Of a stretch of 52,509 nucleotides of DNA, positions 3,612 to 17,806 are shown piece by piece (positions within the stretch are counted from its first letter, which is position 1; the number at the start of each line of letters is the position of its first letter). The DNA lies in the NCBI GenBank assembly GCA_040751795.1, contig JBFMHR010000006.1, positions 1 through 52,509 on the forward strand, written 5' to 3'. Origin of the DNA: Thermoplasmatota archaeon (GTDB lineage: Archaea > Thermoplasmatota > Thermoplasmata > UBA10834). A program made the position numbers and the translations under genes. The notes beneath the pieces were generated by a model. The model saw only the letters and a program-made list of their open reading frames with translations. It did not search any database and was not told the DNA's origin.

Positions 3612-3821
3612 TCAGGCCTTCTTCTCCTCTGGAGGGGCGGCTGCGGCCCCCGCCTCGGGCGCCGGCGGCGGCGCGGGCTTGTCCTTGAACTCGTCCGCGG
3701 GCTTGGTCGTGTACACGCCGCAGGAGGGGCAGTAGAACATGACGAAGTCGTCGTCCATGTCGTCGGCCTTGAGCTCCTTGCCGCACATCCTGCACTTCGC
3801 CCTCATCTCGTGAAGCTTCAT
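3612..3821 (-). CDS. small zinc-ribbon protein with Pro/Ala-rich tail
   Basis: CRMC...CPSC pair, GC3-rich codons, co-oriented downstream of NAC. Confidence 0.7.
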   Translation of the reverse strand: MKLHEMRAKCRMCGKELKADDMDDDFVMFYCPSCGVYTTKPADEFKDKPAPPPAPEAGAAAAPPEEKKA

Positions 3822-3879
3822 GGGACCAGATCCTGAGCGGACTCCGAACACACAGGGGCACAATAAGCTTTGCCCGGCC

Positions 3880-12148: not shown

Positions 12149-13939
12149 ATGTGCGGTATCGTGGGTTACGCGGGCCAGCGCAGGGCGCAGCCCATCCTCG
12201 TCGACAGCCTGAAGAGGCTGGAGTACAGGGGCTACGACTCCGCCGGGATAGCGGTCGTGGGCAAGGGGCTCCAGGTCTTCAAGAGCGAGGGCGAGATCGC
12301 GGTCCTCGAGAGGGACATGCCGGAGATGGACGGCTCCCTCGGGATAGCGCACACGAGGTGGGCGACCCAGGGCAGGCCCACCACCGAGAACGCGCACCCG
12401 TTCCAGGACTGCACCGGGAGGCTGGCCATAGTCCACAACGGGATCATCAGCAACTTCATGGACCTCAGGGAGTCGCTCGAGGCCGCGGGCCACAGGTTCA
12501 CCTCGGAGACCGACACCGAGGTCTTCGCACACCTGGTCGAGTCGGAGCTCAGGGGCGACCTCACGGAGGCGGTCCAGAGGGCCGTGGCCAGGGTCGAGGG
12601 CACCTACGCCTTCGCCGTCGTGGCGGAGGGCGGGGACGCGGTCGTCGCGACAAGGCGGGAGAGCCCGCTGGTGGTCGGCCTCGGCAACGGGGAGAACTTC
12701 GTCGCGAGCGACGTGACGGCGCTGCTGAAGCACACCAACCGGATGCTCTACGTCGAGGACGGGGAGGTCGTCAGGGTCACGAAGGACTCCGTGAGGATCG
12801 TGGACGCGTCCGGGAGGGAGGTCACCAGGGAGCCGCAGAAGGTGATGTGGAGCCTCGAGGACGCGGAGAAGGGCGGGTACCCCCACTTCATGCTCAAGGA
12901 GATCTTCGAGCAGCCCAGCGCGATACACGACTCCCTCCTCGGGAGGGTGGAGACCCTCGACGCGGAGCCGTTCTTCGCGGGCAGCGCCTTCTCGAACGTG
13001 AAGATCGTCGCGTGCGGCACCTCGTACCACGCCGGCCTCGTCGGCAAGTACATCATCGAGGAGCTGGCCAAGATCCCGACGACCGTCCAGATCTCCTCGG
13101 AGTACAGGTACTCGTCGGTGTCGAGGGAGAGCCCGCTCATGGTGCTGATAACCCAGAGCGGGGAGACCCTCGACACGATGGCGGCTGCGAGGGAGGCGAG
13201 GAAGCGGGGCAACAGGACCGTCGCGGTAGCGAACGTCATGGGCTCCGCCATCACGAGGGAGGTGGACCACGTCATCTACACCAGGGCCGGCCCGGAGATC
13301 GGGGTCGCGGCCACGAAGACCTTCGTCACCCAGCTCGTCGCCCTCTACATCCTCGCGATGGACCTGGGCTCGCAGAACAGGACCCTGAGCGCGCTCGCGA
13401 AGCGGGCGGCGATAGGTCAGCTCAGGAGCCTCCCGAGGGCCGTCCAGGACGTCCTGAACAAGGCCCCGGAGATCGAGGCGCTCGCGAGGAAGTACCACGC
13501 GGCCCGGGACATGTTCTTCATCGGCAGGAACATCAACTACCCCGTCGCCCTCGAGGGGGCGCTCAAGACCAAGGAGATCTCCTACATCCACGGCGAGGGC
13601 TACCCCGCGGGCGAGCTGAAGCACGGCCCCCTGGCCCTGATATCGAAGGATTCCCCGGTGGTGGCGATAGCCGTCAGGGACCACACCTACGACAAGATGC
13701 TCGGCAACATCGGCGAGGTCTCGGCGAGGGGGAGCCCGGTCATCGCCATCGGCTTCGAGGGGGACACCGAGCTGGCCAAGTTCGCGGATGACGTGGTGTA
13801 CATCAGGGAGATACCGCCCCTGTTCTCCCCCGTGCCCGTGATAGTCGCATTGCAGCTCTTCTCCTACTATCTGGCCAGGGAGCGCGGCTGCCCGATCGAC
13901 AAGCCGAGGAACATAGCCAAGACCGTCACGGTGGACTGA
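12149..13939 (+). CDS. glmS: glutamine--fructose-6-phosphate transaminase
   Basis: MCGIVG start, LEYRGYDSAG, HTRWAT, QSGETLDT, ELKHGP, PRNIAKTVTV. Confidence 0.97.
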   Translation: MCGIVGYAGQRRAQPILVDSLKRLEYRGYDSAGIAVVGKGLQVFKSEGEIAVLERDMPEMDGSLGIAHTRWATQGRPTTENAHPFQDCTGRLAIVHNGIISNFMDLRESLEAAGHRFTSETDTEVFAHLVESELRGDLTEAVQRAVARVEGTYAFAVVAEGGDAVVATRRESPLVVGLGNGENFVASDVTALLKHTNRMLYVEDGEVVRVTKDSVRIVDASGREVTREPQKVMWSLEDAEKGGYPHFMLKEIFEQPSAIHDSLLGRVETLDAEPFFAGSAFSNVKIVACGTSYHAGLVGKYIIEELAKIPTTVQISSEYRYSSVSRESPLMVLITQSGETLDTMAAAREARKRGNRTVAVANVMGSAITREVDHVIYTRAGPEIGVAATKTFVTQLVALYILAMDLGSQNRTLSALAKRAAIGQLRSLPRAVQDVLNKAPEIEALARKYHAARDMFFIGRNINYPVALEGALKTKEISYIHGEGYPAGELKHGPLALISKDSPVVAIAVRDHTYDKMLGNIGEVSARGSPVIAIGFEGDTELAKFADDVVYIREIPPLFSPVPVIVALQLFSYYLARERGCPIDKPRNIAKTVTVD

Positions 13940-13942
13940 GCC

Positions 13943-14941
13943 TCACTCCAGCCTCTCGGGGCACACGTCCTTCCTGGAGCAGTGCCTGCACTTGCCGGGC
14001 CTGTCGTGGTTCCTGTGCGCCTCGCCGGTCTGCACGATCGCCCTCATCTCGGCGAGCTTGTCCACCAGCAGCTTCCTGAGGTCCTCGTTGTACTCGACCT
14101 GGTCCTCCCTCTCCGGGTACTTGAGGAGGCCGTAGGGCGGGGCCTTGCCCATGGTCTCCTCGATGAGGAGGCAGTAGGCGGCCACCTGGAGGGTGTGGGA
14201 GAACAGGGGCCCCTGGGGCGTCCTCCCCCTCTTCTCCTCCACCGGTATGATGTTGTCGGCGAGCTTGATCACGTAGTCCGGCCTGCCGGAGAGCCCGTAC
14301 CTCTCGGACTTGAAGACCTTCGACTCGTCCATGTCGATGTACTCGATCTTCCCCTTCACCCTGAACTCGTGGCGCAGGGACTCGGCTATGCTCGTCGCGG
14401 ACAGGGACCTCCGCAGGAAGAAGGTCGCTGCCATGAGCCAGATGATCGCCATGATCTCCAGGACCTGGGCGAGCACCGGGTCCTCCTGCAGGAACACGAT
14501 GGCGTTCACGGCCACTATGGCCGCGACTATGGCGAAGGTGAGTATCAGCTTCTCGTAGTCGAGGATCTTGCTCTCGACCGTGGACCTGGAGGCCTTGTAC
14601 AGGAAGAACGCCGCCGCCAGGACCCAGATGAGAGCCACGGCCCCGAGTATCTCGCCGAAGGAGACTGACTCCTCGAAGGGCATGAGCTCGAGGCCCATGA
14701 TGGCTATGAGCGACGCGACGACCGCGTACCAGAACACCAGGCGCTCGGACTCCTTGGCGCTCCTCTCCCCCGAGTCGATCCTCCACAGGGTCTCGCCGAG
14801 CCTCTCGTGCTCCTCGATGCCCTTCCTGGTGGTCGTGTCCTGGACGTCGTGCTTCTTGCTCAGCCACCAGCTCATCGGGCAGTAGCTGTACTTCTCCAGA
14901 TCGCCGGCGGAGATGTAGCCCCGTCCGGACGGCTCGGCCAT
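13943..14941 (-). CDS. solo Cas4-family Fe-S nuclease with a four-transmembrane-helix insertion
   Basis: ISAGDLEKYSYCP (Cys1), GIEEH, GRPDY, VEEK, QVAAY, C-terminal CRHC-x5-C; four hydrophobic helices between motif I and motif II. Confidence 0.88.
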   Translation of the reverse strand: MAEPSGRGYISAGDLEKYSYCPMSWWLSKKHDVQDTTTRKGIEEHERLGETLWRIDSGERSAKESERLVFWYAVVASLIAIMGLELMPFEESVSFGEILGAVALIWVLAAAFFLYKASRSTVESKILDYEKLILTFAIVAAIVAVNAIVFLQEDPVLAQVLEIMAIIWLMAATFFLRRSLSATSIAESLRHEFRVKGKIEYIDMDESKVFKSERYGLSGRPDYVIKLADNIIPVEEKRGRTPQGPLFSHTLQVAAYCLLIEETMGKAPPYGLLKYPEREDQVEYNEDLRKLLVDKLAEMRAIVQTGEAHRNHDRPGKCRHCSRKDVCPERLE

Positions 14942-14948
14942 GCGGCGA

Positions 14949-15752
14949 CTATGAGTGTCCCTGGTCAATAAACTTTGCCGGGTGCCCGTGCTGGGCCGCC
15001 GTCTCCTCGCCCTCGGCGAAGTGGGAGCCGTCCAGGAGCACTATCCCCTCGGGCGGCTCGATCCCCTCGACGTACCCGAACCAGTACACGACCGCGCCCG
15101 TGCCGAACATCTCGGTGTAGGGCTTCAGCTGCTTCTTCACGTTCTTCCTGAGCTCGATCTCGTCCCCGAAGGACGCCTTCGACTCGATCCAGAACACCTT
15201 GGTCCCGTTGATCTGTATGGGCTTGTCCAGGAGGCAGTCCGGCGTCTTCTTGTGCGTCGCCCTCAGGTCCGCCTCGGTCCTGTAGGTGACGCACCTCCTG
15301 TCGAGCCAGTCCTGGAGCTGCTTCTCGCCCCACTTCCCCCTCTCGGTCTGCACATCCGAGCCCTTGGGGGAGTAGATGATGTCCTCCTCCGCCACCCTCC
15401 TGAGCTCCTTCCGGAGCCTCTGGTCCCTGCAGGAGTCGGGGTCGCGGATGTACTTCCAGTACGACTTCCTCGTGAGCCCTATCTCCGGGGCGAGCATGAG
15501 CCCCAGCAGGACCGGCGGGAAGTTCATGGTCCTCGCGAGGTGCGCGATCGAGTCGCCGTGCTTCCAGTCCTTGGCGATCTTCTTGATGTCCTTCTTGACG
15601 ATGTAGAACCTGCGCGTGGCGTCCCTGACGGTCCGCTGCGTGTACATGACGAGAAGGAGCTCCCTGTCGAGCCCCATTGACTGTGAGAGCCTGTCGATGT
15701 CCTTCGGATTCCTGAGCCTAAAATAGATGTCCTTGTAGTCTTCGTACTTCAT
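14949..15752 (-). CDS. CDIN1/C15orf41-family (TPD domain) PD-(D/E)xK nuclease
   Basis: KTPDCLL, WIESKASFGD, QLKPY, GAVVYWFG motifs; helical/HTH-like N-terminal half. Confidence 0.85.
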   Translation of the reverse strand: MKYEDYKDIYFRLRNPKDIDRLSQSMGLDRELLLVMYTQRTVRDATRRFYIVKKDIKKIAKDWKHGDSIAHLARTMNFPPVLLGLMLAPEIGLTRKSYWKYIRDPDSCRDQRLRKELRRVAEEDIIYSPKGSDVQTERGKWGEKQLQDWLDRRCVTYRTEADLRATHKKTPDCLLDKPIQINGTKVFWIESKASFGDEIELRKNVKKQLKPYTEMFGTGAVVYWFGYVEGIEPPEGIVLLDGSHFAEGEETAAQHGHPAKFIDQGHS

Positions 15753-15940
15753 TAGTCCACTGTCCAGCATCGTGCTGAACGAACAGTTCGCAACGTTTCT
15801 GCTGGCGGCAACTATCCCCGGTTGTCTATATATTACTTTGCGACGGACGCACGCCGGCCAAGGGCCCCCAGGAGGCGCAAGGTTGAATACGGCGGAAGTC
15901 ATGGAGCGGAGTCCCCAGAGCGTTTTTGGGAGGTGTCTCG

Positions 15941-17038: not shown

Positions 17039-17167
17039 GCCACTGGCTTGGCCCGCCCTCACGACTGGCCGTGCTCCAGGCTCAGGAAAGGATATATAAC
17101 CCGAACGCGATTCTTCAGGTGTCGCCCCAGCGGCGGCAGAAGGGATGAACTAAAGGAGGTTTTCGAA

Positions 17168-17806
17168 ATGACCAGCACGTTGAACACGTTTATAGCGTCA
17201 GGGAACACACCGCCATGGCTCCCGAGGGAGGTCGCCGACGGGAGGAGGTTCGCATGGTGGGCGGAGATAATGTTCCTGCTCGCTGCTCTGATATGGTTCA
17301 TCATCGCGATAGTCGAGGTCACGATGTACGTGATCGACGGAGGGGTGGGGAGGATCGCGTTCGGCATATTCGGCTTCTTCGCGCTCCTGATCTGCTTCCT
17401 CGCCGCGGTGTTCATGAAGAAGACGGTCATGGACGCCATCGACCAGGGCAGGTTCCACGACGCCAAGAACGACTCGCTCGTGTGGATAATCATCGGGTTC
17501 TTCGGCTTCGCGCTCCCGTCCATACTCCTGATGCTCACCTACATGAAGATCGGGGACGCGCTCGCGCAGCAGGCCCCCGCAGGGTACCAGCCCTACGCCC
17601 CGGGGACCGTGACGGCCCAGCAGCCGGGGCAGCCGTACGCCCCGCCGCCGGTGCCGCCGCCGCAGCCCGCCCCGCCGGCCGCCGCCGCGCAGCACCCCCA
17701 GCACCCGCAGCACCAGCACCAGCCGATGGCGAAGTGCAAGAACTGCAACGTCCAGTTCCCGATGTTCATGCACAACTGCCCGAACTGCGGCGCTCCCAAG
17801 GAATGA
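17168..17806 (+). CDS. membrane protein with Pro/Gln-rich linker and C-terminal zinc ribbon
   Basis: AAGGAGGT RBS, three hydrophobic segments, PQ-rich linker, CKNC...CPNCG. Confidence 0.75.
   Translation: MTSTLNTFIASGNTPPWLPREVADGRRFAWWAEIMFLLAALIWFIIAIVEVTMYVIDGGVGRIAFGIFGFFALLICFLAAVFMKKTVMDAIDQGRFHDAKNDSLVWIIIGFFGFALPSILLMLTYMKIGDALAQQAPAGYQPYAPGTVTAQQPGQPYAPPPVPPPQPAPPAAAAQHPQHPQHQHQPMAKCKNCNVQFPMFMHNCPNCGAPKE

Follow-up and report, generated by a model that had tools for sequence, protein, structure and literature searches.

Organization of the locus

The window analyzed here is the whole 52,509-nucleotide (nt) stretch of contig JBFMHR010000006.1 from an uncultured Thermoplasmata archaeon, and the subject of this study is a pair of minus-strand open reading frames (ORFs) within positions 13943-15752. 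Gene A (14949..15752, minus) encodes a 267-aa protein of the C15orf41/CDIN1 family (Pfam TPD, PF14811, E 8e-44). Gene B (13943..14941, minus) encodes a 332-aa solo Cas4-family iron-sulfur (Fe-S) nuclease that is split by a membrane insert, as assigned with the NCBIfam model TIGR00372 and structure comparison in Foldseek. An initial annotation of this DNA had described the two genes as a self-contained, undescribed two-nuclease operon. The layout on which it was based was confirmed. The stop codon of gene A (TAG, 14949-14951) is followed by 7 nt (tcgccgc) and then by the ATG of gene B, which begins at 14941.

The pair is bounded on one side by the convergent gene glmS (12149..13939, plus; a GATase and two SIS domains), which lies outside the feature and whose stop codon is 3 nt from that of gene B, and on the other, upstream of gene A, by a divergent gene of the Fe-ADH family. 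At 0.63-0.64, the G+C content of the two genes matches that of their flanks. Acquisition by horizontal transfer or as part of a mobile element was considered and rejected, as there was no composition shift, no repeats were present and the flanks are housekeeping genes.

Gene B encodes a Cas4-family protein interrupted by predicted transmembrane hairpins

Gene B scored 87.2 bits against the NCBIfam cas4 model (TIGR00372; equivalog cut-off 65) and 42.2 bits against Pfam Cas_Cas4 (PF01930; cut-off 22.7), both models covering only residues ~166-328 because of the membrane insert. In an alignment of 31 homologues (28-69% identity), C21, D222, K237, Q252, C318, C321 and C327 were invariant, and H45, E235 and Y256 were kept in at least 90% of the sequences. 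The RecB-type motifs D...E-x-K...Q-x-x-x-Y are all present (D222, E235-x-K237, Q252xxxY256), together with four cysteines of the Fe-S-cluster type, namely an N-terminal C21 and a C-terminal CxxCx5C (C318, C321, C327). This four-cysteine pattern was kept in most of 84 sequences (gene B and its best 83 matches), and the exceptions mostly look truncated. The alignment places C21 (14879-14881) and the near-invariant H45 in an N-terminal nuclease segment (residues 1-60; 14762..14941, minus), and profiles and alignment together place the catalytic core and the CxxCx5C motif in residues 183-332 (13946..14395, minus).

The AlphaFold2 model of gene B (mean predicted local distance difference test score, pLDDT, 87.9; predicted template modelling score 0.78) consists of helices followed by a beta-sheet core. 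Its best Foldseek match in the PDB was 8d3q_J (E 8.2e-6; TM-score 0.52 on the target), followed by 4ic1_D (E 1.2e-5) and 7mi5_A (E 1.1e-4). Sixteen PDB matches were found at E<=0.001, led by Cas4, Dna2, MGME1 and ACE1, and the model also resembles the nuclease domains of EXO5 and AdnAB.

Four hydrophobic helices, spanning residues ~65 to ~175 by hydropathy, separate the N-terminal Cys/His segment from the catalytic core; in the AlphaFold2 model the helices cover residues 36-85, 92-119, 123-148 and 155-193. The membrane embedding of Cas4 that had been proposed earlier agrees with these predictions. Hydropathy, the model and hhalign divide the insert into a first transmembrane (TM) hairpin repeat (residues 61-121, TM1 and TM2; 14579..14761, minus) and a second (residues 122-182, TM3 and TM4; 14396..14578, minus). 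The two repeats match each other in hhalign with a probability of 98.5% (E 3e-15), and by this sequence comparison they are tandem copies of one module of ~60 residues. Mean numbers of lysine plus arginine were 9.9 for the N-terminus, 0.5 for loop 1, 3.0 for loop 2, 0.6 for loop 3 and 5.3 for the segment after TM4. Because of the even number of helices and this positive-inside pattern, both halves of the nuclease are predicted to be cytoplasmic. Fe-S clusters are assembled in the cytoplasm, which fits such a topology.

The best 83 matches of gene B fall into length groups of ~260-285, 320-345, 390-410 and 500-600 aa, and by a rough hydropathy count the number of hydrophobic peaks rises with length while the N-terminal cysteine and CxxCx5C are kept. 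With the four-TM profile, the hairpin-1 segment was matched three times, followed by hairpin 2 and the core, in the ~565-aa proteins of loci L083 and L084, and one hairpin was skipped in the 275-aa protein of L087. Since the profile repeats or skips hairpin segments in this way, the copy number of the hairpin appears to range from ~1 to 4 across Thermoplasmatota. Judged from these sequences, the membrane-split Cas4 is a lineage-wide family and not an oddity of one genome.

Relatives of gene B are numerous. In a 90%-clustered database 481 were found at E<=1e-5, many of them named 'CRISPR-associated protein Cas4', and in a 50%-representative library there were 1275 matches at E<=0.001, 78 of them at E<=1e-30. 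The closest atlas clusters are archaeal, most often from Thermoplasmatota. Among 94 pattern matches in IMG/VR no viral relative of gene B was confirmed. As a separate lead only, a cluster of 324 bacterial proteins (mostly from Planctomycetota, hypothetical, ~356 aa) resembled gene B in a language-model search, where it ranked 8 with a score of 0.92 and 188/256 shared.

Solo-cas4 genes were described as a class by Hudaiberdiev et al. (2017, PMC5704561). Solo-Cas4 of Methanosarcina mazei Go1 is reported by Rentz et al. (2025, PMC12501428) to be an Fe-S, metal-dependent DNA nuclease that prefers supercoiled DNA and forms a large oligomer. This soluble protein is the nearest experimental guide for gene B. 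Gene B is like the archaeal solo-Cas4 proteins in its four cluster cysteines, in being encoded away from cas genes and in having no known biological role, but differs from them in carrying two TM hairpins inside the nuclease domain and in being a predicted integral membrane protein. The main text of that 2017 survey (PMC5704561) contains the term 'transmembrane' 0 times. No report of a Cas4 split by TM hairpins was found in the literature searched or in the main text of Hudaiberdiev et al. (2017), although the supplements of that survey might list such proteins. Archaeal TPD genes and solo Cas4 are thus already known, while the hairpin-split membrane Cas4 is apparently undescribed.

Oligomerization has been reported for soluble Cas4 proteins, and on this basis it was considered whether the hairpin-split Cas4 could be a core Thermoplasmatota membrane ring, with 2-8 helices per subunit, that processes DNA touching or crossing the membrane (incoming DNA, or chromosomal DNA caught where the cell divides) and has the CDIN1 homologue as a partner in five families. 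Such a ring is an attractive but improbable arrangement.

Gene A encodes a protein of the CDIN1/C15orf41 family

Gene A matched Pfam TPD (PF14811) at 149.3 bits (cut-off 27; residues 110-241), and public records at NCBI name its relatives 'C15orf41 family protein'. The identities first proposed for both genes, CDIN1/C15orf41-like and Cas4, were thereby upheld. Across 32 aligned homologues (39-87% identity), E143, K169-T170-P171-D172, S191 and K192 were invariant, and E190 was kept in at least 90%. Because these motif residues (E143, KTPD, E190, S191, K192) are conserved, the PD-(D/E)xK site of gene A is considered intact, and the earlier statement that catalytic motifs are kept in both genes agrees with the two alignments.

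The AlphaFold2 model of gene A (mean pLDDT 91.5) is poor in the last 20 residues alone, and residues 1-123 are all-helical. A helical, helix-turn-helix (HTH)-like N-terminal half (15426-15752, minus; from the model), a PD-(D/E)xK domain (15030-15425, minus; from PF14811 and the conserved residues) and an unconserved, low-confidence tail (14952-15011, minus; from alignment and model) could be distinguished. In VIA-align comparisons, residues 128-247 matched restriction-endonuclease-fold domains with Z 6-8, a merely suggestive range, and residues 1-48 matched homeodomains with Z 5.3-6.2, a range often reached by chance; the match to HTH_Cbp1 was also weak (E 0.009). Foldseek returned nothing from the PDB at E<=0.001 and no solved CDIN1 chain surfaced, and a sequence search of solved structures gave a chance-level match only (E 0.15). 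Taken together, the model suggests that gene A combines an HTH-like DNA-binding half with a PD-(D/E)xK nuclease domain.

Gene A resembles human CDIN1/C15orf41 in matching the family model at 149 bits and in its predicted layout, a putative HTH followed by a PD-(D/E)xK domain. Loss of human CDIN1 leads to chromatin bridges between daughter nuclei. A TPD gene is also found in Methanosarcina acetivorans. In Swickley et al. (PMC7092493), C15orf41 orthologues are reported in Euryarchaeota, and Codanin-1 is described as a protein of animals and some protists, C15orf41 being older. Since Codanin-1 is described from animals and protists there, no Codanin-1 would be expected for gene A. Nuclease activity was not detected for human CDIN1 according to Shroff et al. 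(PMC7261414).

Assignment of gene A as an Hjc Holliday junction resolvase was tried and rejected. The two proteins share the PD-(D/E)xK fold class, but the likeness is weak only (NCBIfam Hjc, NF040854, E 0.011 and 15.5 bits versus a cut-off of 70; PF01870, 12.5 bits versus 21.1; 1gef, Z 5.5), and gene A, far under the family cut-off, differs further in having an extra N-terminal helical half.

Fusions of TPD were looked for among proteins of 469-2000 aa and none was found, a result that counts as weak evidence. No second Pfam domain was present in three long open frames surrounding TPD genes. A divergent branch of TPD (PF14811 E ~1e-20) with open frames of ~350-400 aa was observed in many genomes of families f27 and f42, and one of these ORFs (L170:2041-3174, f42) has ~160 extra N-terminal residues without a Pfam match.

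Gene B and the CRISPR system

No CRISPR-type tandem array was found in the window, where a repeat scan gave 4 short repeats only. The same genome does carry, on contig C52 (L002:430-2181, minus), a 583-aa ORF in which Cas1 (PF01867, E 4e-89) comes after a Cas4 domain (PF01930, E 1.7e-13). The organism thus possesses a gene for CRISPR adaptation that is fused to a Cas4 of its own and lies outside the contig of the window. The absence of a local CRISPR context noted at the outset was correct.

It could be argued that gene B is an unlinked Cas4 that serves CRISPR adaptation in trans for a Cas1 locus elsewhere; the genome has a Cas1 gene, and gene B is above the cas4 equivalog cut-off. However, that Cas1 is already fused to a Cas4 domain of its own, and Cas1 was found in only 7 of 61 related genomes, with no case among the 36 further members of family f1, as compared with 53 of the 61 for gene B (the related genomes are incomplete, and absence here and below means 'not found'). 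A role in trans is accordingly close to refuted and hardly to be entertained. The presence of gene B does not track Cas1, and gene B is independent of CRISPR; for this reason the public name 'CRISPR-associated protein Cas4' is misleading. The best structural matches of gene B are nevertheless CRISPR-associated Cas4 proteins (SSO0001, 4IC1; type I-C, 8D3Q/8D3L; the Cas4-Cas1 fusion, 7MI5), with which it has the D...ExK...QxxxY motifs and the C...CxxCx5C cluster in common. It differs from them in lacking Cas1/Cas2 or an array nearby, in its occurrence independent of Cas1 and in its membrane insert.

Phyletic distribution and adjacency of the two genes

Of the 61 relatives, 54 yielded TPD and 53 yielded gene B; both, with the membrane part of Cas4, were present in 48. 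The genes were adjacent in 36 of these 48 genomes (f1 31/31, f2 3/3, f8 2/2, with cases cut by a contig end counted in) and apart in the remaining 12, which represent ten families (f3, f4, f5, f9, f10, f12, f13, f15, f17, f18); in one of the 12 they lie 341 kb apart on a single contig. Some genomes kept one gene only. TPD without a membrane Cas4 was found in G043 and G056 (f6, 99% complete), G044 (f7) and G034 (a fragment), as well as in G048 and G060 (f11), in which only C-terminal Cas4-domain matches were present. Gene B without TPD was found in G051 (f14) and G053 (f16), both 99% complete, and in the partial G025.

In a phylum-wide sample of 201 genomes, each at least 85% complete, 115 contained TPD and 147 matched the gene B profile, ordinary Cas4 domains included. 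With the five further adjacent pairs recovered there (f21 4/4, f23 1/1), the two genes adjoin each other in 41 of the 41 genomes that contain both within five Thermoplasmata families (f1 31, f2 3, f8 2, f21 4, f23 1). Other classes contributed 70 genomes with both genes; in these, the best matches were never neighbours, and in the one case of a shared contig they were 1.5 Mb apart. Both genes are thus present but apart in 82 genomes (12 of the same class and 70 of other classes). Retention of a single gene was again a feature of whole families. TPD was found in 23/23 and Cas4 in 1/23 (a weak match) of the f6 genomes, whereas f24 had a full-length Cas4 in 11/11 and TPD in 0/11, and Cas4 as against TPD was found in 3/3 versus 0/3 in f14, 2/2 versus 0/2 in f20 and 8/8 versus 0/8 in f28.

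In a tree of 35 four-TM Cas4 sequences, from which five rows with other hairpin numbers were excluded, all 15 adjacent rows fell on one side of a branch (SH-aLRT, the Shimodaira-Hasegawa-like approximate likelihood ratio test, 80). Adjacency required one state change on this tree, as compared with a mean of 11.5 for shuffled labels, and 0/500 shuffles were as low. The tree fits a single juxtaposition followed by vertical descent. The arrangement is therefore largely confined to this lineage, five families of one class, and the gene-neighbourhood and co-occurrence comparison proposed earlier gave a divided answer, with constant adjacency inside the five families and genes apart or single elsewhere in the phylum.

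From 553 metagenome loci for gene A, the best 80 were compared; each shares at least 48% identity with gene A, and this sample overlaps the adjacent clade. The pair was adjacent in 66 of them and separated in 6, while a contig end interrupted the remaining 8. Since 66 of the 72 informative loci are adjacent, the adjacent clade is evidently common in nature. A prediction of a complex between gene A and gene B from two alignments returned a score of 0.00, which speaks neither for nor against binding.

Promoter-like elements

A promoter-like BRE/TATA (B recognition element and TATA box) sequence, GGCAAAGTTTATTGA, was recognized at 14965..14979 (minus), within the 3' end of gene A. Its TTTATT lies in the last codons of gene A, beginning 31 nt upstream of gene B's ATG, and by the usual archaeal BRE/TATA layout it would fit a promoter of gene B's own, with a very short leader. 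The motif has its sole exact match in the window here (0.02 expected). An A/T run at this position was kept in 23 of 25 f1 loci, in most of which the TPD stop is downstream of the run while the encoded tail of gene A is unconserved. Elements like AAA-N-TATA similarly precede gene B in families that have TPD elsewhere. With such an element located within gene A ahead of gene B, separate transcription of gene B is plausible, and because that element is conserved, the 7-nt gap is no proof of one transcript. A second promoter-like sequence, the putative AAAGTAATATATA, lies upstream of gene A, between it and the divergent gene (15827..15839, minus), and may serve both directions.

In the window (65% GC), A/T-only runs of at least 6 nt were depleted (25 versus ~54 in shuffles), and many of them sit 29-46 nt upstream of long ORFs, so that such runs appear to be a usable promoter signature for a GC-rich genome. 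The sole near copy of the GGCAAAGTTTATTGA motif (2 mismatches) was observed at 3860-3874 (minus), immediately upstream of a small ORF (3612-3863) that has two CxxC pairs.

Gene neighbourhood

The conserved neighbours of the pair are genes for RNase HII, an SCP2-like protein, a GlmU-like transferase, glmS, Fe-ADH, an AlaX-like protein, IF-2B and PurP. Families f1, f2, f21 and f23 have a common order of a membrane zinc-ribbon protein, TPD, Cas4, glmS and the transferase, with the Fe-ADH gene placed between the zinc-ribbon protein gene and TPD in f1, and in f13 the synteny of transferase, glmS and Cas4 is present without TPD. Because the whole housekeeping block is syntenic, kept adjacency is weak evidence that the two genes are coupled.

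Other genes were observed beside the pair or its members. The conserved divergent neighbour of TPD in f2, f8, f21 and f23 is the zinc-ribbon-like protein represented in the window by a 252-aa protein (17048-17806, plus), which has hydrophobic helices, no Pfam match, a proline/glutamine-rich stretch (tandem repeat at 17588-17667) and a CxxC...CxxC zinc-ribbon-like C-terminal end. Just after membrane Cas4, a conserved, convergent ORF of ~109 aa without a Pfam match (L058:6538-6867, minus) has counterparts in L049, L051, L053, L054, L055, L057, L059 and L076, its spread covering eight loci in six families of the class (f3, f8, f10, f12, f15, f16) and one locus of another class. Another conserved ORF, of ~178 aa and likewise lacking a Pfam match, often comes after it. 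In f14 (L056:4971-8936 and L074), where TPD was not found, three genes come after membrane Cas4 in the same orientation; they encode a metallo-beta-lactamase-fold protein, then a DUF3198 protein, and a phospholipase D (PLD)-like protein that has a lamin-tail domain. In f15 (L049), too, Cas4 adjoins the PLD-like gene, and the beta-lactamase-fold gene is near TPD in two other families (L063, L067).

Functional interpretation

Based on the results of this study, genes A and B are probably independent, old housekeeping DNA enzymes that became neighbours once, gene B being a membrane-tethered enzyme of the Cas4 type, and they have since been kept together within a stable syntenic neighbourhood. The pair is best read not as an obligate two-component system but as having at most a lineage-limited functional link.

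The main alternative is that the CDIN1-like protein and the membrane Cas4 form a co-transcribed two-nuclease operon acting at the membrane, at least in the five families. The common strand and the 7-nt gap, the constant adjacency in f1, f2, f8, f21 and f23 and in the metagenome loci, and the intact nuclease motifs of both genes are in its favour, and CDIN1 may need a partner, as no activity was found for it alone or with a Codanin-1 fragment (PMC7261414). On the other hand, a single evolutionary event provides no independent replication of the link, the genes are apart in 82 genomes and several families keep one only, the unrelated housekeeping block is equally syntenic, and a conserved promoter-like element precedes gene B; the failure to find a fused form also points this way, as weak evidence. 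A partnership of this kind is rather unlikely, and the initial claim of a self-contained system did not survive the comparison, in which adjacency goes back to one event in five families and one-gene families exist.

Several points weigh against independence of the two genes. Adjacency is perfect (41/41, and 66/72 in the metagenomes) while gene B diverges to 36-39% identity, and the genes share a strand with short gaps (7 to ~100 nt); together these features could reflect selection for co-expression. The tree came from a quick search with midpoint rooting, and the support of its adjacent clade (SH-aLRT 80) is moderate. Outside the class, the comparison covered best-match rows, 119 weaker rows being left out. 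A promoter belonging to gene B is plausible on sequence grounds, and the activity, topology and localization of the membrane Cas4 proteins are predictions.

It might also be supposed that the pair, or gene B alone, is an antiviral or antiplasmid defence that destroys DNA entering through the membrane. Cas4 proteins have ties to immunity, anchoring in the membrane would position the nuclease at the entry site of foreign DNA, and in PADLOC-DB 2.0 gene B matched, besides Cas4 models, DruK of Druantia weakly (E 5e-7). Against this, the distribution is near-universal, single-copy and along family groupings, which fits vertical descent, the neighbours are housekeeping genes with no defence island, and the composition is normal. 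Gene A matched no family in PADLOC-DB 2.0, and no described defence system there matched both genes. Defence is a very unlikely role for this locus.

If the reading as independent housekeeping enzymes is correct, both genes would be intact chromosomal genes, each vertically inherited, that were united once in an ancestor of the five Thermoplasmata families within the conserved housekeeping block and stayed adjacent, gene B retaining a promoter-like element of its own. The nuclease domain of gene B, interrupted by two tandem TM hairpins, would have its halves reassembled on the cytoplasmic side around the four-cysteine Fe-S site. The enzyme would act as a metal-dependent 5'-3' exo/endonuclease reaching only DNA located at the membrane, for which DNA ends entering the cell, DNA at the division site and peripheral plasmid or viral DNA are candidate substrates. 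The tether may thereby keep a potentially dangerous nuclease at the cell periphery and off the bulk nucleoid.

Solo Cas4 is common in archaea, and the membrane-built form narrows where such a nuclease acts and gives a localization that can be tested. The route to a membrane anchor is unusual because the anchor was inserted within the catalytic domain and not added at its end, and its hairpin copy number (~1-4) varies within an otherwise conserved enzyme. As for gene A, no paper on the gene neighbourhood of archaeal TPD was found in the literature searched. The neighbourhood of the five families offers a candidate partner for CDIN1, which from the phyletic data is not a general one; if a partnership between genes A and B were true, it would provide the first tractable prokaryotic handle on the role of CDIN1.

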